A DNA stretch of 64,000 bases from a virus: UHGV virus genome UHGV-0142425. The stretch is one strand, 5' to 3'. The notes beneath the pieces were generated by a model. It searched no databases, was not told the DNA's origin, and saw only the letters and a program-made list of their open reading frames with translations. The translations under genes and the position numbers were made by a program. Shown here piece by piece: positions 1,680-18,864 of the stretch. The first letter of the stretch is position 1, and every line of letters begins with the position of its first letter.

Positions 1680-2872
1680 TAATCATCATCCCCGTATAGC
1701 TTGCGGGTAACTTCTTCGTCTTCCTCCTCGTCTTCGTCCAGGTCTTGTTCCAGCCATGGGTCGTTTGATACACCTTCAGTATCAACATCTCCATAACCGC
1801 CTGTATCAACGATATCGGCGATTTCTTCCCTACGCTGCTCAATCCACAATGCGGCATCGGCGCGGCGGTTGGCGGCCCGTTCTCGCGCAACTTTGTCCAG
1901 ATCTTCAAGAGAAGGGCCACCGACGGCTGTTTGCCTTTCCTCATCATCGGTATTGGTCTTCGGAGCACGCAGATCGGCTTTGATTTGCTCCAGCATCAGG
2001 GGCGGCACTTTCCCGCCATGCGCCTCGATGAATTCAGCTGCTTCCAGCACTGACCAGTTATTTTCACGCTTTCGTTCGTATGCCAGCTTAACAATGCCAG
2101 CTTGCCCCATAGATAAAGCGTGCTTTTCCGCCTCCCGGCTTTCTTTTCGATAGTTATTCCGGATGCTGTAAATGGTGTTGATCAGGCTGCTTATCTGCGC
2201 GGAACAGCTGTTTAGCATGCTCGCGATACGGTATTCAGGCGGAGTACCTTCATCATCGGCTTTTTGCTGATCGCGCATTTCCTGCACCAAGCGAATACAC
2301 GTATCCCTGGCGTTCTCCAGCATAAGGAGATGAGAAAGAGACTTTTCAAGAAGAGTGGTTTCCAGAACATCGGCCCCGGACCGACGCAACATAGCGCGCG
2401 CGGCCTTCCGCGCTTCAACGTTATCTATCAGGTAATCGCCAGCTTCAAATTCAAAGCGTTCACCATCATCATCCAGGGTGTCGCGTTCCAGGCGATCACG
2501 TAAGGTCCGGTGGGCGCGGGTGATCACGTCATGATCATCTGAACGATCATTTATGCGCTTATTTTGGCGCTTCGCATTCTCTACTGCGGCACTGACAACG
2601 GCATTAACTCTTTGTTTTTCCGCTATTTCCGCCGCAATGTGATCACCTGAATGTTGATCATTAGAGTGATCAATGATCATGCTTTTTAGTGGCTTCCTGA
2701 CTGGCTTATTTGGCTTGCGGCTGTCCGCTGTCCTGGTGTCTTCTTTGAAGGCACGGAGATAACGACGTGCGGTATTAGGGTTAAGATTAAACTCGGCGGC
2801 ATACTGTGCGATGGTGTAACCACCATCTCGCGCCAGGCGAGCAAAATTCTTCTTGTGATCGTCCCAGGTCAC
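1679..2872 (-). CDS. pacA: Terminase small subunit / pac-recognition protein (P1 PacA-like), 397 aa
   Basis: ORF track; N-terminal HTH-like segment; contains the clustered TGATCA/G hexamer pac site inside its coding sequence. Confidence 0.8.
2493..2680. other. pac: pac packaging site: two clusters of four TGATC(A/G) hexamers, each with a Dam GATC site
   Basis: Hexamers read at 2493, 2521, 2532, 2544 and 2640, 2655, 2667, 2675; architecture matches the P1 pac site inside pacA. Confidence 0.75.
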
Positions 2873-2957
2873 TTATGCTTCCTTTCGTAAAAACTCTTTT
2901 TGACGCGAGGGTAACGAAAGTCACATGTCAAAAGGCCCGGAACGGGCAAGCAATCAA

Positions 2958-3410
2958 TCAGATACGTGCGGATGTGGCATTACCGTAATTACGGTGCTGA
3001 CGGGCCACCTTATTGAAAAGTTGACGCGCCATTACCCAAGGCTGGTGCTCCCGGCGTTCCTTTTCGTCCTGCGTCATATAGAGTTCGTTCTGGAGTTTTT
3101 CATCAAACCGGCGCGGTGCGCGGCTGCGGCGAAAGAATTCAGGGTTCAGAGAGTGGATCTGAAATCTACGTGGGCGTGTACTGTCATCAATCAAAACAGA
3201 CGAATACTTAGACACAGCGATAGCCTTTAAGCGCAGATAAACGTCGCGCTTATCGACATCCAGATGCGGGTATTCCTTTTCAAGGATTGCTGCGAGTTCT
3301 TTCGCTGATAGAAGAGATTTAGTGCGGATCATGTAATCCGCAATCTCATACGATGTTATTCGTGAGTGATTTATTTCCATGAAGTGGCGTCCCTGCCAGT
3401 TAAGTAACAT
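2958..3410 (-). CDS. lpa: Late promoter activator Lpa-like protein (150 aa)
   Basis: Size and position immediately upstream of pacA; C1-operator-like site in its promoter region; by synteny with P1. Confidence 0.5.
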   Translation of the reverse strand: MLLNWQGRHFMEINHSRITSYEIADYMIRTKSLLSAKELAAILEKEYPHLDVDKRDVYLRLKAIAVSKYSSVLIDDSTRPRRFQIHSLNPEFFRRSRAPRRFDEKLQNELYMTQDEKERREHQPWVMARQLFNKVARQHRNYGNATSARI

Positions 3411-3480
3411 CCTGTCACCTACTGATTAGCCCATGTCAACTAATCAACGTGGAATATAATACCCTCGATTAAAGAAATAG

Positions 3481-3497
3481 CAACACATTAGAGCAAT
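3481..3497 (-). promoter_or_regulatory. C1 operator-like site (about 13/17 match to ATTGCTCTAATAAATTT) upstream of lpa
   Basis: Sequence ...cacattagagcaat...; weaker match than the other operators. Confidence 0.4.
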
Positions 3498-3498
3498 T

Positions 3499-4542
3499 TT
3501 ATCTAACGCTCGACGAATGACTTGTGATAGCGCCGACTCCAAGCGCGTAATCAAAGAACAATCGTTGATGCATCGCCAGCCTGCCGTGTGTTTTCTCCCA
3601 ATTATCGCGGTCACGCTCAATATCACGCTGGCATGACTGGCACAGAGGAATCGCATAAATGTCATGCGCGCATAATCGACTATGACGAACGATATAAGGC
3701 GTAATGTGAGCGCCAGCTCCCGCAGCTCCACACCCACAGCATGGACGGGAAGCAACAAAGTCCATGTACTCAGGTAATTTTAGCGATTGCAGTTTTGGTA
3801 TTTTGAAATGCGCCATGCCAGGGTCGGAGTCAACATCCACAGGGCATACTTTTGCTCGCATCGGCGCGGCGCGTTCTTCCATCATCTGAACATATGCTGT
3901 AGCGCGATCGTCATACGGGCGAATATCCGCCTCTTTCAGAGGCCCGCTATCCTGCGTTGCAGTCTTAATCTTATTTATTGATATACGGCAGACTTCTTCC
4001 GGCATCAGGTGCATCATGTCGCGCATGAAAGCCCACCAGCACAGTTCCTGAATACTTAAATCATGGCCATCTGAAAGCCCCATTTCCTGACGGGCGACAT
4101 CCAGTATCCAGTTAACGCGATTATTATGCAGCGTTTCTTTCAGCTCATTAAGACCACGCATCCGGTAATGGTTATCGTGATGCCAGCACAACAACACCGC
4201 GCTATTGTCTCGTTCTGCGTGGACAATATGGTTGTCACACCAGCTCCGATCTGCGGCCTGGCATTGCCCCTCTTTCCTGCGCAACCACGCCACCAGCGCG
4301 TCAATTCCACCAATACGGCGAAACAGTTCATCGCTGTTAAAAAACGGCTGCAACGCCTCATTTGTTGCCATAGTTTGCTCGGAAACAACGAGGCCGTCGT
4401 CCATGTGCTCGATTAACTCACGCGGCACCGGCTCCATAATAAATTTACGGCCAGCCTCCACCAGCTTTCTGACTTCCTGATCCACTTTGAATGTGGCGAC
4501 GCCAAGCTCTTTTTGTACAAAGGGAGTAATTACGGCTTTCAC
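3499..4542 (-). CDS. Hypothetical protein, 347 aa (position of P1 pdcB)
   Basis: ORF track; Cys-rich C-terminus; no recognised domain. Confidence 0.5.
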
Positions 4543-6286: not shown

Positions 6287-6868
6287 ATGCCTAATCGCAT
6301 TCCTCTCGATCCTGTATTGCCCAAAAATTTTGACTGCACTCCTAACGAGAAACGCTCTAAAGCTCAGCTGGACGCCTGGTGGGACCATCCCTATGGGGTT
6401 ACACACCCTGACGGGAAAATTGTTGTTTATTGTCTGAATGGTGGCGCGTGGGACCGTCCATCCGTGCTTGGTTTGGCAAATAACTATGATGAAGCCTGTG
6501 AACTTGCCGAAAGACAGCAGGCTAGATGGGTGAAAACACGGTCACAGCCGACATTCATGTTTTCAAAAGAACCGCCATTTATACTGGCGAGGATGCCGCA
6601 GCGACCGGATCATCAACAAGAAATTGTTGCTGAATTTTCCTCAAGGGATGAGATGAATCTCTTCTCATTAAAGCAGGAAGAAAGGGAGCGCGTCGAAGTG
6701 TCTCCAACTCTCGACCACAACCGGATGAACCTGGCCCAACTCGCCTGGTACAGCAAAGAATTAGAGATGTCTATTGCCCGACTTGAAAACGAAAAAGCCG
6801 CTATCCAAGCCCAGCATGAAGTAGTTCTGAACCGGATTAGAGAAATGCAAAACGATAATAGAGGCTAA
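6287..6868 (+). CDS. Hypothetical protein, 193 aa, C-terminal coiled coil; divergent from humD and probably SOS-regulated
   Basis: ORF track; AAGGA RBS; shares the LexA-box intergenic region. Confidence 0.6.
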   Translation: MPNRIPLDPVLPKNFDCTPNEKRSKAQLDAWWDHPYGVTHPDGKIVVYCLNGGAWDRPSVLGLANNYDEACELAERQQARWVKTRSQPTFMFSKEPPFILARMPQRPDHQQEIVAEFSSRDEMNLFSLKQEERERVEVSPTLDHNRMNLAQLAWYSKELEMSIARLENEKAAIQAQHEVVLNRIREMQNDNRG

Positions 6869-6892
6869 ATCGAGGTAGAAAACACATTGTTT

Positions 6893-6913
6893 AAGGCCAC
6901 TAATTGTGGCCTC
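6893..6913. terminator. Hairpin (GGCCAC-TAATT-GTGGCC) between convergent genes
   Basis: Inverted repeat read in sequence. Confidence 0.5.
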
Positions 6914-6928
6914 AAAGGGGAGAGATGC

Positions 6929-7453
6929 TTATTGGCTATGGCTAAAAATCAAATGAGACACTTCATGTGGTTGTAGCTCGTCAAGATCCGGGGCCACAAA
7001 ACCTTTTCCGAAAGACTTCACAAGTAATTCACCAGCCGCATCATTGTCACCTATTACACGAAAGTCATACGGCAGCATCGCAAGTTGACGGCGTAATCCT
7101 GCGGAGAAAGTCGAACCTAACAGCGCCCACGAATTGCCGCCCGCGTTGTGTACAGCTGCGCTCTTAAAAATAGACTCAGTTATCCATATTGGGCCATCTT
7201 TTAAAGGAAGATAGGTTCCCCAAAGTAACTGTTTGCCATGTGATCGCGTGAAATACCGAGCCATCTTCGGATTGCTATGCTGCTTAGGAGCACCTGGTCT
7301 ATATGTCTGATACCCAGCCAACATCCCATCAAATCTGTATAGAGGGAATGTAACTACTCCTTCACTTTCATCGATCCACTGTCTATATGGGTGTATATCA
7401 TGGCGGTAGTTACGAGTTAGCAAATGAGCTTCCAGCTTTCCAAATTTTGTCAT
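6929..7453 (-). CDS. Small Toprim-like protein, about 174 aa
   Basis: Motifs ITESIF (Glu) and VIGDNDAAGELL (DxD) resemble primase/topoisomerase Toprim; start at Met with AGGAAG RBS. Confidence 0.45.
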   Translation of the reverse strand: MTKFGKLEAHLLTRNYRHDIHPYRQWIDESEGVVTFPLYRFDGMLAGYQTYRPGAPKQHSNPKMARYFTRSHGKQLLWGTYLPLKDGPIWITESIFKSAAVHNAGGNSWALLGSTFSAGLRRQLAMLPYDFRVIGDNDAAGELLVKSFGKGFVAPDLDELQPHEVSHLIFSHSQ

Positions 7454-7501
7454 AATTCCGTTCTTCCTGGCTTTTAGCTGCAATATTGCAGTTGCTCATG
7501 T

Positions 7502-7774
7502 TTAAAGCTCACATTTCCAGATGGTATTCTGAACACCCGAACCGGGAGCGAGATGGGGATTAGCGTTCGCGCTATGCTGATATACGGCTTTAGACTTCCC
7601 ATATTGCTGACAGGCTTTATCTGCGGTTTTTTGCAAGCTATCAAGGCCATACCAACCATCTGACTGTATGCTTACCTTTTCACCGTCGTTGTATTGCACC
7701 ATTGCACACCCAGATATAGCCAGTATCGCGCCGACAATAACGCTTTTCCATAAAACTCTATACAACATAGACAA
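7502..7774 (-). CDS. Small lipoprotein, 90 aa
   Basis: Signal peptide with lipobox ...AILAISGC. Confidence 0.55.
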   Translation of the reverse strand: MSMLYRVLWKSVIVGAILAISGCAMVQYNDGEKVSIQSDGWYGLDSLQKTADKACQQYGKSKAVYQHSANANPHLAPGSGVQNTIWKCEL

Positions 7775-7813
7775 AAATCCCCTCTGTGAATTGAGGGGAT
7801 TTTAGCATGGTGA

Positions 7814-8071
7814 TCAGAGATCAGCTTTATGCAGAATTTTATCCACCAGCGATGTGATTTTTTCTGCCAGGTCATCATTACTTACCCAATCCTGGCGGGC
7901 AGCCAGAACGGGCGACAAAGTTAATATTAACTCTCGCCGTAATGATGCGTTCCGTGGTGCTAGTGGTGGTTTAAGCCCCTCGCTCCCTTGTATTTCTGGG
8001 GTATGCGGCTGATAGCCATTAATCATCCTTTTTTTCTCCATTTTCGGTGGGCGCGGACGCGGGAGAATCAT
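7814..8071 (-). CDS. Hypothetical Pro-rich protein, about 85 aa
   Basis: ORF track 7814..8101; start chosen at Met with GAGAAAGGA RBS. Confidence 0.4.
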   Translation of the reverse strand: MILPRPRPPKMEKKRMINGYQPHTPEIQGSEGLKPPLAPRNASLRRELILTLSPVLAARQDWVSNDDLAEKITSLVDKILHKADL

Positions 8072-8376
8072 GATTCCTTTCTCTTCCTGCATACTGGGCA
8101 TGTGTTCTCTGTGAAATATGGGAAACTATTATCCAGCTCATCTACCCACTGTTTATGGTCGAAGCAGAAAAATATCTCCCACGGCATTCCATATTCTTCC
8201 ATCCATAGGCGGATCTGCATTTCTATTGGAATCGGCGGTATTGCAGACACCATATCAACAGGATAACAGTTCAGACGACGTTCCAGTTCTTCTACTCTCT
8301 TCTGGAGATGAAATATCCGATCCAGATGCACACGCCGCTCCCGTGCCATTTTAAAATAAAGCTCGCCGGTCATCAT
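8068..8376 (-). CDS. Coiled-coil plus C-terminal Zn-ribbon-like protein, paralogue A (102 aa)
   Basis: C-terminal W-x-F-C-x-DH-x-W-x-DELD-x-SFPYF-x-E-x3-CPxCR shared with the adjacent gene. Confidence 0.55.
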   Translation of the reverse strand: MMTGELYFKMARERRVHLDRIFHLQKRVEELERRLNCYPVDMVSAIPPIPIEMQIRLWMEEYGMPWEIFFCFDHKQWVDELDNSFPYFTENTCPVCRKRKES

Positions 8377-13675: not shown

Positions 13676-14364
13676 TGGTTGCCTCCTTTGCGAAGCTGGG
13701 CAGCAAAGTCAACTAACCACTCAGTCATTTCAACCTTCCCTACCAGGTCTGAACCAGGGTGCATACAGCAATCACTCTGCGCCGCTTTGAAATCCTTATA
13801 CTCATATTCTTGGACCACCAGATTTTTTGCAGCTTCTATAGCAGCATCCACCCCCTGCGCCCGCACTTCAGACAGGAAAGCATCAGTGGCTGGAATGGGC
13901 TTTTGTGGTGATATAGCAATGCGAATTGTCTCAAGGTCTGGATCTGTTTCCGCTGCTGGCACCTTGATATAACCCATCTGCACCCCATTCATGATGAACC
14001 TGCGACGGTCATCACATATCGCCTTTAGCCCCACATTCTCCGCCACCAGCGCCGCGAGATTAGTCTCAAGCTCTGCAATTCGACACATAGCATCAATATT
14101 TGTGTCCTCCAGGCGCTTAATTTCATCCAGTAGAGCCAGCACAACTTTGGGTGGGATAGCCGCGATATAACGGGCATTGGCACCAGCGTTTCTCTGTCCA
14201 TCAATGCCAGGCCAGTCAATAAAGTATCCGCAATGCCTACCCTCAGACGTATGCGCAGGATAAGTGCCGTTTTGCCCCGGCAAAATATATGCTACCCATT
14301 CATCTTGCGTTGCCTGTTCCGCCGCCTCGCGCAGTACCTGATAGTCAATTGTCATTCTCGCCAT
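13672..14364 (-). CDS. Ead/Ea22-like family protein, 230 aa
   Basis: IDYQVLREAAEQA ... PKVVLALLDEIKRLE motif. Confidence 0.5.
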   Translation of the reverse strand: MARMTIDYQVLREAAEQATQDEWVAYILPGQNGTYPAHTSEGRHCGYFIDWPGIDGQRNAGANARYIAAIPPKVVLALLDEIKRLEDTNIDAMCRIAELETNLAALVAENVGLKAICDDRRRFIMNGVQMGYIKVPAAETDPDLETIRIAISPQKPIPATDAFLSEVRAQGVDAAIEAAKNLVVQEYEYKDFKAAQSDCCMHPGSDLVGKVEMTEWLVDFAAQLRKGGNQ

Positions 14365-15017
14365 CCTTCACAGTTGTAATCACTACAGCCTTCAAAATCA
14401 TATGGGCTGTACTGCCAGGTGATTTTTCCGCAATGCGGACAATTCCAACGCACCTTCCCGCTTCGCGACTTCTTTCTTCTGTTCTGCTTTTTCAACCAGT
14501 CAGGCATGATCAAACCTGCGCCCTGAACCATTGTTCTGCGGTTAAAGTTATTGATATTGAACGTCCGGCGCTTTGCTGCATCAGCAATGGAAAATGGCAA
14601 CCAAACTATTCCTGGTTCGTTTTTGTTGGCGACGCTAAAGATGGTCGCTTTACTGAAGTCATCTGTTGGCAATCCACCGTGTTGAAGCCAGTAAACATCG
14701 TTGCCGTTCCAGCTACCTTTTTTGTAGGCCACATACGCAGTGCAATCTGACTCAATCAGGCTTTCTGTAGGGATGTACTGGCAATCAACGTGCCACACAG
14801 CCATTGCATCCACGCTATCAGCGCAAACAGGCTGATCGATATCTCGTCCACAATTCCAGGCTTTTTGGGCTTCTTCCAGCGTGTAAACATGAGCGCGATC
14901 AATATCAGAACTGTAACCATTGCCGTTATGGCAATGGAATGAGGCGTTATTACCCACAGTTTCACGCAAGCACATCATGTAAAAGCGGTTATTCACTGGT
15001 TGCCTCCGCTTCCCCAC
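14352..15017 (-). CDS. Hypothetical Cys-rich protein, about 208-221 aa
   Basis: ORF track; start ambiguous (GTG at 15017 or ATG at 14978). Confidence 0.45.
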   Translation of the reverse strand: MGKRRQPVNNRFYMMCLRETVGNNASFHCHNGNGYSSDIDRAHVYTLEEAQKAWNCGRDIDQPVCADSVDAMAVWHVDCQYIPTESLIESDCTAYVAYKKGSWNGNDVYWLQHGGLPTDDFSKATIFSVANKNEPGIVWLPFSIADAAKRRTFNINNFNRRTMVQGAGLIMPDWLKKQNRRKKSRSGKVRWNCPHCGKITWQYSPYDFEGCSDYNCEGWRE

Positions 15018-15250
15018 GTTTTCAGACTTTCACCACAGAACGGGCAAAATGAAACTCGAATAGGCGATTTAGAAAATTCACCAGACCGCAGCATGATCAG
15101 GTCTTGTGAATGAATTAATTCATGGTTATAGATTTTGTATTTCAGCAGACCTTTTCGCGTCGTGTATTCAGCGTCATGCTCCAGGGATTGTGTCAACGCC
15201 GCGCACGGTTCTATCTTGTTGCCATTAATTTGGCATTTTGACTCACTCAC
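14993..15250 (-). CDS. Small protein with C-terminal CPFCG zinc-ribbon-like motif, about 85 aa
   Basis: GTG start with AGGGGG RBS just after the upstream stop. Confidence 0.35.
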   Translation of the reverse strand: MSESKCQINGNKIEPCAALTQSLEHDAEYTTRKGLLKYKIYNHELIHSQDLIMLRSGEFSKSPIRVSFCPFCGESLKTWGSGGNQ

Positions 15251-15824
15251 TGGTTGCCCCCTGAATACGCTCAAACTCTATTACCCACACCCAAGGATTA
15301 GCGTTCCAACTATCTTCGCCATAAATTGATTTCCATAGGCTACGGAAACCTGGGTAATGCTTATCGCCAATGAGGGTCGATTCTGTTGGTGCGCCCTCAG
15401 CCCTTGCATCGCATTCGCTGATATCGTTCAACCGCTCAACGCGCACGTTGGTAATTTCCAGAAGAATGCGCGATGCCCAGCGCGGCATGTGAATTGATGG
15501 AGTCCACTTTTCTGATACTGGTTTATTACAAACCTCGACCGGAACCCGGTGCGTTTGTTCTGTCCAGGAGTTACGCACGCTTGCGCGATAAACCAGCGTT
15601 GCTACGTCCGTCGCTTTGCCATGTACCCGGTAGGTTTCGCGAACCCAAATACGATCGCCCGGTTGACCATATGGACAATGCTTGGCAAGCAACTCTGCGG
15701 CCACTGCCCGTCCATAGAATTTTTCTTCAACAATCCTGCGAGTCTGTGTTTTATTCCCGCCAAGAATTGCCCGGACCATCTCATCGTTAAAAATCATGCC
15801 GCGCTCTTTCACTTCGCCTTTCAT
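15243..15824 (-). CDS. ASCH-like domain protein, 193 aa
   Basis: N-terminal MIFNDEMVRAILGGNKTQTRR resembles ASCH-family proteins. Confidence 0.45.
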   Translation of the reverse strand: MKGEVKERGMIFNDEMVRAILGGNKTQTRRIVEEKFYGRAVAAELLAKHCPYGQPGDRIWVRETYRVHGKATDVATLVYRASVRNSWTEQTHRVPVEVCNKPVSEKWTPSIHMPRWASRILLEITNVRVERLNDISECDARAEGAPTESTLIGDKHYPGFRSLWKSIYGEDSWNANPWVWVIEFERIQGATSE

Positions 15825-15833
15825 GCATCCCCC

Positions 15834-15920
15834 TTACCCATGTGCGACGATGCCGCCAAAAGTGATAGAGAACAGCCAGAAATAGATCGCGGCCATAATG
15901 ATTTTGAATGCCGTGTTCAT
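15834..15920 (-). CDS. Leader hydrophobic peptide, 28 aa (MNTAFKIIMAAIYFWLFSITFGGIVAHG)
   Basis: Read manually; CAGGAG RBS; first ORF after the C1-controlled promoter. Confidence 0.3.
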   Translation of the reverse strand: MNTAFKIIMAAIYFWLFSITFGGIVAHG

Positions 15921-16002
15921 ATTTTCAGCTCCTGTGATTGATTGGATACATGCCGCGCCTTGCGGCATGTTTTTATTTTCACTTTCTCTGTTTTAAAAAT
16001 CA

Positions 16003-16019
16003 AGATTTATTAGAGCAAT
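16003..16019 (-). promoter_or_regulatory. C1 operator (16/17 match) at the promoter of the long early operon running leftwards
   Basis: AGATTTATTAGAGCAAT = reverse complement of ATTGCTCTAATAAATCT. Confidence 0.7.
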
Positions 16020-16525
16020 TATTGCTGATGGAGAAGCGCGTTTTCATACTCCCTGACCATTAACGTAAGTACGCCGTGACTCCTGAAAACACGCGCCACT
16101 TCAATCTTATCTTCCAGCGCGAACGCGATTTTACTTAGACCAATTTTCTTAAGGAGATCAATCTTTGCTGGGCCGTCATTTCTGTCATCGGTGGCAGGAC
16201 GCATAGATAGCAAAGGCTCAGCCCCGTTTGTTACGTACTTCCGCAGCCAAGCTCGTGTTTTATCCCTTGCGATCTCACAGCGCCCGGTTACAAACCAGAC
16301 CGTGTAAACGTTAAATAACTGGCGCACCATATCAATAACTGGAGTGATGGGAGTATCGGTGTCACAGGCGAGATTAAACTCGTTCCAGTCCTTTGTTAAT
16401 GCACCTTTACCTGGTGGCGGAAGCAAATGCAGTCTGTCTTCAGTTGCCTCTGATATTGTTCCATCAATATCGACTATGACGATATACGGACGTTCCTGGT
16501 GTGCGTGTTTATTGAAAATACTCAA
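16019..16525 (-). CDS. HAD-superfamily phosphatase, 168 aa
   Basis: Motif I IVIVDIDGTIS (DxDGT); TTG start with GAGGAGGG RBS. Confidence 0.6.
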   Translation of the reverse strand: MSIFNKHAHQERPYIVIVDIDGTISEATEDRLHLLPPPGKGALTKDWNEFNLACDTDTPITPVIDMVRQLFNVYTVWFVTGRCEIARDKTRAWLRKYVTNGAEPLLSMRPATDDRNDGPAKIDLLKKIGLSKIAFALEDKIEVARVFRSHGVLTLMVREYENALLHQQ

Positions 16526-16543
16526 ATGCCCTCCTCATTGGAC

Positions 16544-16580
16544 GAAAAAAATGCTGGTGGGACGCACTCCACCAGCATTA
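16544..16580 (-). terminator. Rho-independent terminator (11-bp stem, U-run on minus-strand RNA) between the 420-aa gene and the HAD gene
   Basis: AATGCTGGTGG-loop-CCACCAGCATT flanked by A/T runs; contains a Chi octamer. Confidence 0.6.
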
Positions 16581-16598
16581 AAAGTGACACTGTAACTA

Positions 16599-17861
16599 TC
16601 AGCGAACGTAAATAGTGCCGCCGTTCTCTTTTTCCCATGCATCGCTACGTGCATAGCAAACATCGAGAAGTCTTCTTGCCGCTGTTTCCTCTAAACCCAA
16701 TTCGACAACCAACTGCTCATGACGGCGGGTAACCACATCAAACAGGGTATGCAGCCCTTTAGTTGCCAGATCATCAATGAATTCCGGTTCGAACGGCAGC
16801 TCTGCATCTGCCAACATAACCTCTTGCGCCCACTCGACACGGCGGACCAGTTCCGGGCGGCGGCTTTCCATCTCTTTACAGATCAATTCATGGAAGAACT
16901 CTACCCAACCTTCCGGCTGGAACTCGCGGAAAATTGCCAACGGCTGGAAGTTTGGCATCAACCATTCGTTGATTCGGATATCAATGGCATAGCCCATGTC
17001 GCAGCAGAACTGATAAGCAAAGTCCAGCTTAGAAACGATATAAGGACGCTCGTTATTGAACTCTTTAGGCGATGAGATCCCATAAGCCAGGAGGCGCGGG
17101 AAGAAGGAGATTTGCCCTAACGTCGGATGAAGTTTGCTTGCAGGGAAACGGCGCTCAGTAATGCCATACATTTCCTTCTTGAGCGTCGCAAATTTGGCAT
17201 TCTCATTAACCAGCGCGGTAACCTCTGCTTTTTTATTAGCAAATGCCACGCGCGCCTCGCTTGCATCTTTAATAGTTTTTTTGAGCTGTTGGTTAAGGTC
17301 GGCGACCTGCTTACGCAGTTCCTGTCGCTCGCTTTTAGCTTTGTTATAGCGTTTCTCAAGGTTAAAAGGATCAAGTTTCATGATCTCTTTATATTGAGAT
17401 TTTAGCGTTGAAATCTGTGAGTTCCGCAGTTCAACCATCGCGGTCATTTCATTGAGTTTTGTTTCCAGCTCAATGCTTATACGTTCGGCATTATCAGCAC
17501 GCTGGTTGGCGTCATGCGTCGCATCGTCGATCGCGTCCTGTTGCTGGCGTTTCAAATGTTCAATTTGCAGCTGAAGCTCTTCAATTTCTTTACCCTTCAG
17601 ACCGAGATCCAACTGCATATTTTCAGCTGCATCTACCAGGGAGTTATGGCTATCAGCTTCTGCGTTATAAACATCAATAAGCTGTGCGTGAAGCATCTCC
17701 GCTGACTGAACCGCATTATCAAAAAAACGCGCTGTGAGGTCATCACAACTAACGCGGCGTTGCGCGGCTCGGATGTTCTGGATAATGGCCGGGATACCGG
17801 CATTCAGGACGTCAGGGATAGATACATTTTCGATTGATTGGTTTTGTGCTGAAGTGCTCAT
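16599..17861 (-). CDS. Hypothetical protein, 420 aa, long central coiled coil and conserved-looking C-terminal domain
   Basis: ORF track; no Walker or nuclease motif recognised. Confidence 0.6.
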   Translation of the reverse strand: MSTSAQNQSIENVSIPDVLNAGIPAIIQNIRAAQRRVSCDDLTARFFDNAVQSAEMLHAQLIDVYNAEADSHNSLVDAAENMQLDLGLKGKEIEELQLQIEHLKRQQQDAIDDATHDANQRADNAERISIELETKLNEMTAMVELRNSQISTLKSQYKEIMKLDPFNLEKRYNKAKSERQELRKQVADLNQQLKKTIKDASEARVAFANKKAEVTALVNENAKFATLKKEMYGITERRFPASKLHPTLGQISFFPRLLAYGISSPKEFNNERPYIVSKLDFAYQFCCDMGYAIDIRINEWLMPNFQPLAIFREFQPEGWVEFFHELICKEMESRRPELVRRVEWAQEVMLADAELPFEPEFIDDLATKGLHTLFDVVTRRHEQLVVELGLEETAARRLLDVCYARSDAWEKENGGTIYVR

Positions 17862-17862
17862 T

Positions 17863-18081
17863 TCAAAGTTCCGTATTAGCTTGTGCTTCGGTCATTTTTC
17901 CTAAGTATGAAGGTGGAAGGACTACGCAATTTGTATCCAGTCCCTCACCTATGGCAGCCTGTAAAATTCTGGCTAAGGTGAGTCTCTTGTTGCGATACCT
18001 GGTGATGACATGCCTGATACCGCCGGTCGGCGTAACAAAGGCGATCAGCCAGTAGTGATATTTCCGTCGGAATGGCCACAT
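17863..18081 (-). CDS. Hypothetical small basic protein, 72 aa
   Basis: AAGGTG RBS; first gene after the C1 operator at 18096. Confidence 0.45.
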   Translation of the reverse strand: MWPFRRKYHYWLIAFVTPTGGIRHVITRYRNKRLTLARILQAAIGEGLDTNCVVLPPSYLGKMTEAQANTEL

Positions 18082-18095
18082 AGTGCACCTTATGG

Positions 18096-18112
18096 ATTGC
18101 TCTAATAAAAAA
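18096..18112 (+). promoter_or_regulatory. C1 operator (14/17) at the promoter of the 17863-16599 unit
   Basis: ATTGCTCTAATAAAAAA. Confidence 0.6.
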
Positions 18113-18134
18113 CGTGATGAGTGTACATCACGTT
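18111..18134 (-). terminator. Rho-independent terminator hairpin with flanking A/T runs, ending the upstream minus-strand operon
   Basis: AACGTGATG-AGTGTAC-ATCACGTT read in sequence. Confidence 0.55.
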
Positions 18135-18144
18135 TTAAAAATAT

Positions 18145-18161
18145 GGAATTATTAGAGCAAT
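18145..18161 (-). promoter_or_regulatory. Second C1 operator-like site (14/17) flanking the terminator
   Basis: GGAATTATTAGAGCAAT. Confidence 0.5.
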
Positions 18162-18162
18162 A

Positions 18163-18864
18163 TTATTCTGATTCTCGCTCAAAAAACGAGCTAATGAGGG
18201 GAAGCCAATCCTCTGACACTTCGCGAGGCCGCGGTTTGCCGTGGAAAAAGATTATTCGGCAGTCCTTTGGTAATGTCCCATTCCCCCTGGAGTAACGCGC
18301 GCTCGCATATTTTGAACCAGGTTCCACAACATCGGCCTTGTAACTTACAAACCATCCTGGATACAGATCCTGAAATGCTGGTGTATCATCGCCCATAACC
18401 TTCCGTAAAAACCCCTGATCACCCCAGCACTCAGTAGTGACACAACGAGAAATCCAACCTTCCGGATCTTGCCAGAATGAACTCCAGATATGTGCTTTTA
18501 CACTATTTGGTATCCACAGGGCACCGCTACCACGATATTGTGGATGGTAAAAATCCCTAAGCATGGTGAAGCTGGTTGGTGGATTCTCAAGGATTGGGCG
18601 TATATCACCGGCAATAACTGTGTCCAAATCCAGATAGAACAGATCATCGGTTATATCCGGTCGGAACAACTCGATTTTCGCCCACCAGCCACGGCACTTT
18701 TGCCACTGGTTGATCAATGGGACAACTTTGACACCAGGTACATGTAAACGCTTCAGGTCTGTCAGGCAAATAATTTCATAGCCTTTTGGCAGTTGATTAA
18801 CCAGCCACTGCACATCGGAAGCGTTATAGTCACCACCAGAGCGAAGAACTAAAGCAATCTTCAT
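18163..18864 (-). CDS. GT-A-like glycosyltransferase candidate, 233 aa
   Basis: FYLDLDTVI DxD-type motif; fold assignment is pattern-based. Confidence 0.4.

Follow-up and report, generated by a model that had tools for sequence, protein, structure and literature searches.

A known P1 operon in another punavirus isolate: C1-controlled pmgR-pmgS-pap with a probably leaky internal terminator and an apparently facultative pap cassette

The window analysed in this work, the whole 64,000-nucleotide stretch of virus genome UHGV-0142425, was identified as a P1/P7-type phage-plasmid, with 99.0% identity to Salmonella phage SJ46 and 98.2% to P1. The unit under study lies on the minus strand and comprises pmgR, pmgS and pap together with C1 operators, a predicted promoter and two hairpins, the positions of which are collected in Table 1. 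The layout given in the preliminary description, namely a 72-aa protein, a 420-aa coiled-coil protein, a terminator and a HAD phosphatase, was recovered with all its elements in place. Throughout the unit the nucleotide identity with SJ46, P7 and P1 was 98-99%, and the P1 record AF234172 matched it with 100% coverage and 98.2% identity, the features corresponding one to one. OpmgRa and OpmgRb (formerly Op86a/b), PpmgR, pmgR, pmgS and pap are annotated in this P1 record, and the homologous elements in the P7 record are named Op(sht a/b), shtA, shtB and pap. Compared to the P1 pmgR-pmgS-pap and P7 shtA-shtB-pap units, the genes, their order, the operators and the intergenic sequences were identical in kind, and only point differences were found, for instance an additional base in the loop of the terminator. 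Downstream of the unit, the window carries a 193-aa Upf86.8-like ORF as in P7, whereas P1 has the 309-aa PmgT; assignment of this 193-aa ORF as an ASCH-domain protein was without Pfam support and was dropped. The unit is already known: it is the P1 operon in another punavirus isolate, and its finding was a rediscovery of an annotation from 2004.

Table 1. Features of the pmgR-pmgS-pap unit and its flanks, listed in the order of transcription (positions in the window)
Feature	Position	Strand	Remarks
C1 operator OpmgRa (Op86a)	18145..18161	-	14/17 vs consensus, exact 13-nt core; annotated in P1 and P7
Predicted sigma-70 promoter PpmgR	18132..18160	-	transferred from P1 record annotation, and sequence
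Hairpin with U-run, candidate intrinsic terminator	18109..18136	-	11-bp stem; fold, conservation
C1 operator OpmgRb (Op86b)	18096..18112	+	14/17, exact 13-nt core; annotated in P1 and P7
pmgR, 72 aa, ATG	17863..18081	-	ORF; phrog_3177, E = 4e-47
pmgS, 420 aa, ATG	16599..17861	-	predicted N-terminal helix followed by coiled coil, beta-rich domain and (HhH)2-like C-terminus
Intrinsic terminator pmgS/pap	16543..16579	-	11-bp stem, 8-nt loop, T7
Shine-Dalgarno GAGGAGGG of pap	16529..16536	-	3 nt before TTG start
pap, 168 aa, TTG	16019..16525	-	stand-alone HAD 3'-phosphatase (predicted), T4 Pnkp phosphatase-domain type
C1 operator OpmgT (Op88)	16003..16019	-	16/17 match; annotated in P1 and P7

The C1 operator consensus is the 17-bp asymmetric sequence ATTGCTCTAATAAATTT, with ATTGCTCTAATAA as its 13-nt core. 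The exact core was present in five copies in the window (0.02 expected), and sites with three mismatches or fewer were found nine times (0.33 expected). Three of the exact cores flank the unit, at 18096-18108 on the plus strand and at 18149-18161 and 16007-16019 on the minus strand. The operator pair described earlier at 18096 and 18145 was present, inverted and with exact 13-nt cores, and the three mismatches of each 17-mer were all located within the A/T tail; the view of a separate C1-controlled unit agrees with the deposition of this pair as Op86a/b in P1. OpmgRa overlaps the -35 element of the predicted PpmgR, and OpmgRb is inverted relative to OpmgRa and lies 3' of the promoter. At the other end, OpmgT overlaps the stop codon of pap, and the next unit begins there. 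The hexamers assigned to PpmgR, TTGCTC as -35 (18160..18155) and TAAAAC as -10 (18137..18132), match the consensus weakly, and the promoter was therefore missed by a generic promoter scan. In a public P1vir RNA-seq data set, a step-up of 2 log2 was seen from pmgQ to pmgR, which fits the predicted PpmgR. No late-promoter -22 box was found in the window between 13038 and 32760, and the P1 record contains no annotated late promoter between LPpmgL and LPhot. In a lysogen, C1 bound to two monovalent operators of opposite orientation, with Op86a covering the -35 and Op86b lying just downstream, would silence the sigma-70 promoter PpmgR, and derepression would then give a single mRNA from which PmgR and PmgS are made.

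A hairpin is nested between the two operators, and the fold of 18165..18090 had a dG of -26.9 with z = -10.5. It was kept in five P1-like lineages although the stem varies in sequence, contains G.U pairs and is shifted in register, and it probably ends the upstream ppp-pmgQ operon. Conserved hairpins thus bracket the unit, one between the operators and one before pap; neither is present in the deposited annotations, the latter being without annotation in both the P1 and P7 records.

The pmgR-pmgS pair was kept in all P1-like lineages, down to 27% PmgS identity, and also in the 86-118 kb elements L045-L048. A PmgR-like gene was located directly 5' of the pmgS homolog in the P1-like lineages L003, L004, L006/L007 and L053-L056; in the large elements L045-L048 it is also upstream, at a distance of 134-240 nt. 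The pmgR stop and the pmgS start are separated by 1 nt in the window, and translation of PmgR and PmgS is probably coupled. According to the literature, pmgR is the only one of the three genes that is essential in P1: its in-frame deletion gave tails and incomplete (unfilled) heads and no virions, and was complemented in trans. PmgR is thus a small protein which P1 requires for filled heads able to join tails. In-frame deletion of pmgS left plaquing normal, in agreement with its classification as non-essential by CRISPRi, and pap was likewise dispensable.

The product of pmgS matched phrog_1660 over its full length (residues 1-420, E = 1.1e-195), and this profile was also matched by all 61 of the 61 diverse PmgS homologs collected; the family comprises about 120 clusters at 50% identity. 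The long coiled coil that had been noticed in the 420-aa protein was seen in the predicted AF2 structure, with helices at residues 42-160 and 166-232 and a coiled coil of about 190 aa. By good fold and family-profile matches, the C-terminus was assigned as a (HhH)2 domain of the RAD51-N/RNAP α-CTD type. It can be likened to the (HhH)2 modules found in RAD51 (N-terminal domain), RNA polymerase (alpha-CTD) and NusA (acidic repeats), and differs from them in coming after the long coiled coil and the beta-rich domain of PmgS. This predicted domain architecture, including the C-terminal (HhH)2, is new here. In the window copy the second HhH hairpin reads ELGLEE and not KGIG(xK), the canonical G-I-G being lost, and DNA binding by PmgS is uncertain because of this degeneration. 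The Pfam search of the window PmgS gave no HhH match, and Pfam, NCBIfam and PADLOC returned coiled-coil matches only for PmgR, PmgS and the neighbouring ORFs. For the beta-rich domain (about residues 238-300) no structural match was found in PDB or BFVD, and the C-terminal model had no match among the BFVD viral structures at E <= 0.001. When the full-length model was compared with PDB, coiled-coil noise dominated and only the HhH matches were usable. PmgS is a dispensable coiled-coil protein with a predicted RAD51-N/alpha-CTD-like (HhH)2 module at its C-terminus.

Given the names of these proteins in the databases, PmgR and PmgS could be head proteins ('PmgS-like head morphogenesis') or proteins of sheath structure or contraction (ShtA/ShtB), with pap as a passenger. 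The tails and incomplete heads of the pmgR deletion and the adjacency of pmgR and pmgS, close together in all P1-like lineages, point in this direction. However, neither the pmgS deletion nor the CRISPRi knock-down affected plaquing, PmgS and Pap are absent among the virion proteins mentioned in the text and tables of the P1 proteome paper, and PmgR was undetected there. The (HhH)2 domain of the RAD51-N/alpha-CTD type also argues against a virion role, as do the distant relatives of PmgS: their genes have RecE/RecT, integrase and DNA methylase genes as neighbours, in early regions of lambdoid type and not in head or tail modules, an observation that is new here. Searches for related loci with P0067 and P0076 found none. 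In the P1vir data, moreover, expression was early and not alongside the late structural genes: at 10 min pmgR, pmgS and pap were significantly induced, as were ban, ssb, ref and kilA-repL, while those structural and lysis genes that were among the rows covered (prt, pro, sit, S, 16, bplA, lyz) were near 0. The label 'PmgS-like head morphogenesis', used by PHROGs and RefSeq, conflicts with the timing of expression, the genetics, the domains of the protein and its gene neighbours, and a role of PmgR and PmgS as virion morphogenesis proteins is improbable.

It is conceivable, though rather unlikely, that the widespread PmgS family consists of mislabelled early coiled-coil (HhH)2 proteins which act on phage DNA, that in P1-like phages PmgS together with PmgR produces or presents packageable DNA, and that Pap is an optional helper cleaning 3' ends. 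If PmgR and PmgS did supply packageable DNA, the likeness of the pmgR deletion to a packaging (pacA) mutant would be explained.

The strong terminator that had been reported before the HAD gene was present and its fold was stable. Six of the stem pairs are G-C, dG was -20.2 kcal/mol with z = -4.0, and none of 200 shuffled sequences folded as well. P1 and P7 have it too, differing by a 1-nt indel in the loop. The HAD gene has its own GAGGAGGG ribosome-binding site and a TTG start, as described before, and the distance from the T-run to this start is 17 nt only. The 13-mer GTTACAGTGTCAC located 3' of pmgS was considered as a repeated site and rejected, being unique in the window; its pairing with the pap RBS was predicted in the P1-type sequence and was not conserved in L053.

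The transcript levels on both sides of the terminator were taken from one preprint on P1vir infection; its values, log2 fold changes relative to a nearly empty baseline, are not normalised for length. In the wild type at 10 and 20 min these were 5.94 and 8.08 for pmgQ, 7.96 and 9.36 for pmgR, 8.21 and 10.04 for pmgS, 5.52 and 8.08 for pap, and 8.93 and 10.84 for pmgT. From pmgS to pap the drop was 2.7 log2 at 10 min and 2.0 log2 at 20 min in these non-normalised fold changes, and about 1.4 and 0.65 log2 when gene length was allowed for, so that the step-down can be placed only semi-quantitatively, between 1.6-fold and 6-fold. The step-down may also be compatible with a weak pap promoter or with differential mRNA decay. 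The terminator had been called attenuating, and in these data it looked leaky rather than absolute, since pap was induced early yet stayed below pmgS.

Alternatively, the terminator could stop essentially all pmgR-pmgS transcripts, and pap could be driven by an unrecognised promoter at the pmgS 3' end or in the terminator. The hairpin with its T7 does appear efficient, pap mRNA was clear at 10 and 20 min, and terminator, RBS and pap move between lineages as a block. Against such a promoter, a scan between 16700 and 16525, upstream of pap, gave no sigma-70-like site, no late-promoter box was found, and T-run and TTG are just 17 nt apart. Across conditions, pap also tracked pmgS, both being up in an hfq mutant while pmgR, pmgQ and pmgT were down. 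An independent source of pap mRNA is therefore quite unlikely, and attenuated read-through expression of pap was supported. Most transcripts would end at the strong intrinsic terminator, and the remainder would read through into pap, giving Pap from its TTG start; the level of Pap would be lower than that of PmgR and PmgS because only the read-through transcripts carry pap. The arrangement resembles other intra-operon intrinsic terminators, in which a GC-rich hairpin and U-run likewise lie between co-oriented genes with no promoter found between them and lower downstream expression. As no antiterminator, riboswitch or leader peptide was evident, and the Rfam scan of 14000-20000 returned sub-threshold chance matches only, constitutive attenuation rather than a switch is suggested.

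Pap matched the Pfam family HAD_PNKP (PF25109) with E = 7.8e-12 and 46.0 bits (cut-off 27.6) and phrog_415 'polynucleotide kinase' with E = 3e-57. In profile searches against PDB, the matches were Pnkp1 (8e-6) and the phosphatase domain of T4 Pnk (3e-5 and 3e-4). Motif I was D19-I-D21-G-T23, in which D19, D21 and T23 were present in at least 90% of 10 homologs. One odd row in the Pap alignment, P0159, had a divergent N-terminus. The aligned region corresponded to residues 184-292 of T4 Pnk and to positions 156-292 of the 295 of phrog_505, which covers the phosphatase part only, and no kinase domain or P-loop was found in Pap. The deposited name '3'-phosphatase, 5'-polynucleotide kinase' overstates a protein that is phosphatase-only. 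Like the HAD domains of T4 Pnkp (1ltq, 5uj0) and of Pnkp1 in Pnkp1-Rnl-Hen1 (4xrp), Pap has the DxDGT nucleophile and, downstream of it, the conserved R, K and ED positions; unlike these systems, it is without a kinase domain and the unit is without a ligase partner, so Pap is not a complete end-healing-and-sealing system. The assignment of Pap, on its sequence, as a T4 Pnkp 3'-phosphatase-domain homolog that stands alone is new here; the protein, dispensable in P1, would be a 3'-phosphatase of this HAD type. There was no anomaly of GC content marking pap as foreign. Nor does pap have the make-up of a moron, an autonomous accessory cassette with a promoter before and a terminator after its gene: the terminator lies upstream of pap, no promoter-like site was seen, and the 3' end of pap is located within the following operator.

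The slot after pmgS differed among the lineages. It holds the terminator and pap in the window, P1, P7 and L053, a 101-aa gene and pap in L004, and a Rv2179c-like exonuclease, the 101-aa gene and pap in L055; it is empty in L006, L054 and L056 and filled with unrelated genes in L003. Hence pmgR-pmgS was kept and pap was missing in L006/L007, L054, L056 and L003. Because several P1-like lineages keep the pair without pap, pap cannot be an obligatory second step.

This bears on the regulated two-step effector proposed in the preliminary description, in which PmgS would act on a host target and an attenuator-limited Pap would complete or reverse that step, perhaps to take over the host or to counter its defences. 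T4 Pnkp counters anticodon nucleases, and Pap belongs to the same end-healing phosphatase family; the unit is under repressor control, is expressed early and has an insulating hairpin at either end, the dispensability of PmgS and Pap in the laboratory is usual for accessory or counter-defence genes, and a Rv2179c-like 3'-5' exonuclease lies beside pap in L055. Nevertheless, besides the lineages without pap, other genes separate pap from pmgS in L004 and L055, no pap adjoins the PmgS relatives outside P1-like phages, and a comparison with defence and toxin models in PADLOC gave only weak coiled-coil matches between PmgS and LmuB (E about 1e-4) and none for PmgR or Pap. As particles are not completed without the first gene, pmgR, and pmgS and pap are each dispensable on their own, the two-step proposal was not borne out and is very improbable. 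Two findings had been named in advance as jointly speaking against it, a match of the 420-aa protein to a known virion or replication protein and simple co-transcription of the HAD gene with no terminator function; only half of this was seen, as PmgS matched no such protein, but the HAD gene did look co-transcribed, by read-through.

Most probably, the unit is an ordinary C1-controlled early pmgR-pmgS-pap operon with a leaky internal terminator, attenuated pap and a facultative terminator-plus-pap cassette. That the terminator and pap form a facultative block among P1-like lineages is new here, as judged from the genomes compared, and the block would be a cargo cassette in a variable slot rather than the second step in a pathway of PmgS. 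The strong terminator goes with pap and not with the end of pmgS, since L006, L054 and L056 have a weak one or none. This co-occurrence fits a cassette with its own attenuator, but the hairpin could also simply have been carried in with pap. In L053, where Pap is 79% identical, the terminator and the GGAGG and TTG arrangement of pap were kept together, and a G-C pair of the stem was replaced in a compensatory manner by A-U.

Megablast with the interval 15800-18400 as query retrieved 19 phage records, all punaviruses and each with at least 99% query coverage, among which Salmonella phage SJ46, P7 and P1 showed 99.0%, 98.8% and 98.2% identity, respectively. In the P1 record AF234172, operator OpmgRa (formerly Op86a), annotated as "controls expression of pmgR and pmgS", was followed at homologous positions by the predicted sigma-70 promoter PpmgR, operator OpmgRb (Op86b), the genes pmgR, pmgS and pap, and finally operator OpmgT (Op88). 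The deposited P7 record named the three genes shtA, shtB and pap. Therefore, the unit is already known, having been annotated in 2004, and was re-discovered here. All elements listed in the preliminary description, including the open reading frames, the operators, the terminator and the TTG-started HAD gene, were present on the minus strand. The 64 kb contained 5 copies of the 13-nt operator core ATTGCTCTAATAA (0.02 expected), and three of these copies bracketed the pmgR-pmgS-pap unit.

Positions in the window of the pmgR-pmgS-pap unit and of other features described in the text
Feature	Position	Strand	Remark
pmgR, 72 aa	18081..17863	-	
pmgS, 420 aa	17861..16599	-	
pap, 168 aa	16525..16019	-	TTG start preceded by GAGGAGGG
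pmgS-pap hairpin	16579..16550	-	followed by T7 tail
13-mer GTTACAGTGTCAC	16584-16596	-	immediately 3' of pmgS stop codon
ppp	18861-19553		lambda-type metallophosphatase
11-bp hairpin AAAACGUGAUG / CAUCACGUUUU	18109-18136	-	between the two Op86 operators
Leader hairpin, pmgT-side unit	15948-15970		within 15834-15970
28-aa hydrophobic ORF MNTAFKIIMAAIYFWLFSITFGGIVAHG	ATG at 15920		after the leader hairpin
193-aa ORF	15243-15824	-	downstream of pap; P7 Upf86.8-like, phrog_874
Two C1 operator matches	31720-31747		overlapping, opposite orientation

The pmgS-pap hairpin was the strongest terminator-like site within 14-20 kb (-20.2 kcal/mol, z = -4.0), and it was kept in P1 and P7, neither of whose deposited records carries such a feature. 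According to a P1vir RNA-seq preprint, the genes with significant induction at 10 min include pmgL through pmgV, with pap among them, as well as ban, ssb, ref and kilA-repL; in the portion of its table that was covered, structural and lysis genes stayed at about 0 at this time point. The wild type log2 values at 10 and 20 min, which are fold changes over a near-empty baseline without length normalisation, were 5.94 and 8.08 for pmgQ, 7.96 and 9.36 for pmgR, 8.21 and 10.04 for pmgS, 5.52 and 8.08 for pap, and 8.93 and 10.84 for pmgT, and thus rose at PpmgR, fell across the terminator and rose again at PpmgT. Allowing for gene length (1263 vs 507 nt), the drop from pmgS to pap was about 2.6-fold and 1.6-fold, respectively, so that the terminator looked like a leaky, attenuating element and not an absolute stop. 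A promoter scan found no promoter-like site upstream of pap, and a search of the window found no late-promoter box near the unit; the P1 record annotates no late promoter between LPpmgL and LPhot.

Pap scored above threshold against Pfam HAD_PNKP, its homologue profile matched Pnkp1 and the phosphatase domain of T4 Pnk, and the DIDGT nucleophile motif was conserved. Pap resembled T4 Pnk/Pnkp in the phosphatase-type part but had no kinase domain, and is therefore predicted from its sequence to be a stand-alone 3'-phosphatase-type HAD enzyme. Among related P1-like loci, the content of the slot downstream of pmgS varied. Terminator, GGAGG, TTG and pap were found in the window, P1, P7 and L053 (Pap 79% identical, with a compensatory change in the terminator stem), and only an Op88-like operator, with the strong hairpin also missing, in L006, L054 and L056. 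L003 carried unrelated genes, and of two more distant elements, L004 carried a 101-aa gene and pap (7360-8153) and L055 an Rv2179c-like 3'-5' exonuclease (precomputed Pfam match), a 101-aa gene and pap (2762-4116). These contents indicated that the terminator travels with pap and that pap is optional. The joint presence of exonuclease and 3'-phosphatase in L055 hints at nucleic-acid end processing. The 13-mer at the left edge of the slot, with one exact match in the window, was kept in L006, L053 and, with a single A-to-G change, L054 despite diverged flanks, and lay inverted at the equivalent place in L056. Two phosphatases, Ppp and the T4-type HAD enzyme Pap, are encoded in the region, each related to the end-healing phosphatase module of one polynucleotide kinase-phosphatase class; the match of Ppp to NCBIfam bacterial Pnkp was weak (5e-11, far below the cut-off), P7 has an additional putative tyrosine phosphatase nearby, and the co-occurrence may be coincidence.

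In-frame deletions have been made in 29 P1 genes, including pmgR, pmgS and pap; deletion of pmgR gave tails and incomplete heads and was rescued by pmgR in trans, no PmgR was detected among the virion proteins, and pmgS and pap were each dispensable (PMC9024508). Likewise, a CRISPRi screen found pmgS and pap non-essential (PMC10695390). Of the arrangement proposed earlier, the attenuation of pap is upheld. The regulated two-step effector is not supported, because particles are not completed without the first gene, pmgS and pap can each be deleted, and the phosphatase and PmgS are not co-conserved. The best-supported reading is a conventional C1-repressed early operon with attenuated pap, in which PmgR and PmgS would be produced at high level, and read-through of the leaky terminator together with the weak TTG start would give a smaller amount of the accessory 3'-phosphatase.

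For P1-type PmgS, no Pfam domain was found, and phrog_1660 matched at full length. When 1.8 billion cluster representatives were searched with a profile, 119 relatives were retrieved (E <= 0.001), mostly of 360-470 aa with the same layout. Among 61 homologues, the C-termini matched Pfam HHH_5 in 11 and RNA_pol_A_CTD in 9. The full-length AF2 model (pLDDT 72) showed a helix (15-35) and a coiled coil (42-232) interrupted at a conserved L-D-P (163-165), and the C-terminal half was modelled from a 33-sequence alignment with pLDDT 91.6 and pTM 0.86. By sequence, the family profile matched the RAD51 N-terminal domain (3.9e-7) and alpha-CTD (1e-6); the second HhH hairpin was degenerate in P1-type PmgS (ELGLEE vs KGIG), and the preceding beta-rich domain had no convincing match in PDB or BFVD. 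Among the homologues P0025-P0028, P0002 and P0016 from public assemblies were frameshifted products of about 247 aa, which fit a dispensable gene, and fusions to cytosine-methylase or metallophosphatase domains, which may be assembly or gene-calling artefacts.

A PmgR-like gene of 72-75 aa lay directly upstream of pmgS in all P1-like lineages examined (L003, L004, L006/L007, L053-L056), down to 27% PmgS identity, and 134-240 nt upstream in the large elements L045-L048 (86-118 kb); PmgR was not found beyond these. Outside them, PmgS-like genes were located in early regions: between RecT-like annealing protein plus RecE/YqaJ exonuclease and excisionase plus integrase in Brenneria, Pectobacterium and Yersinia prophages; between RecE, RecT and integrase and a Dam-type methylase plus exonuclease in Aeromonas phage phiARM81mr; immediately upstream of a DNA methyltransferase in Vibrio phage douglas 12A4; and downstream of a Dcm methylase in locus L044. 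No head or tail module surrounded the gene in any of these, and the "head morphogenesis" label that databases give to PmgS is unsupported. An action of PmgR and PmgS on phage DNA, either ahead of packaging or in the course of it, is conceivable though unlikely. Apart from the function of PmgR-PmgS, the value of the result lies in some annotation corrections.

The distant PmgR-like proteins of L046 (3502-3813), L047 and L048, viral contigs of 28-118 kb, two being 90 and 118 kb, had at the C-terminus an additional hydrophobic segment of transmembrane-like character (VPSVLLNVLMIVTAAALFITALKLL) absent from P1 PmgR. The 193-aa ORF had no Pfam match; prophage contig L008, whose PmgS-like gene is 96% identical to that of a Brenneria prophage, encodes a 42%-identical homologue (6558-7223) two genes downstream of this gene, so the linkage of the ORF to PmgS reaches beyond P1-like elements.

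The hairpin between the Op86 operators, annotated in neither P1 nor P7, was kept in five P1-like lineages, in which the stem sequences differ, G.U pairs occur and the register is shifted (dG -11.5 to -16.5), and its U-run doubles as the A/T end of operator b. Transcription of the upstream ppp-pmgQ operon probably ends at this hairpin; since the P1-annotated -10 of PpmgR overlaps its 5' arm, PpmgR transcripts would start within the hairpin and escape. The leader hairpin of the pmgT-side unit has a T-run on the plus strand only and would therefore terminate plus-strand (antisense) transcription. The 28-aa ORF, annotated as a membrane protein in SJ46, has a 58%-identical homologue in L006. Finally, the paired C1 operator matches, one of them perfect (17/17), resemble a bivalent operator belonging to a different early unit.
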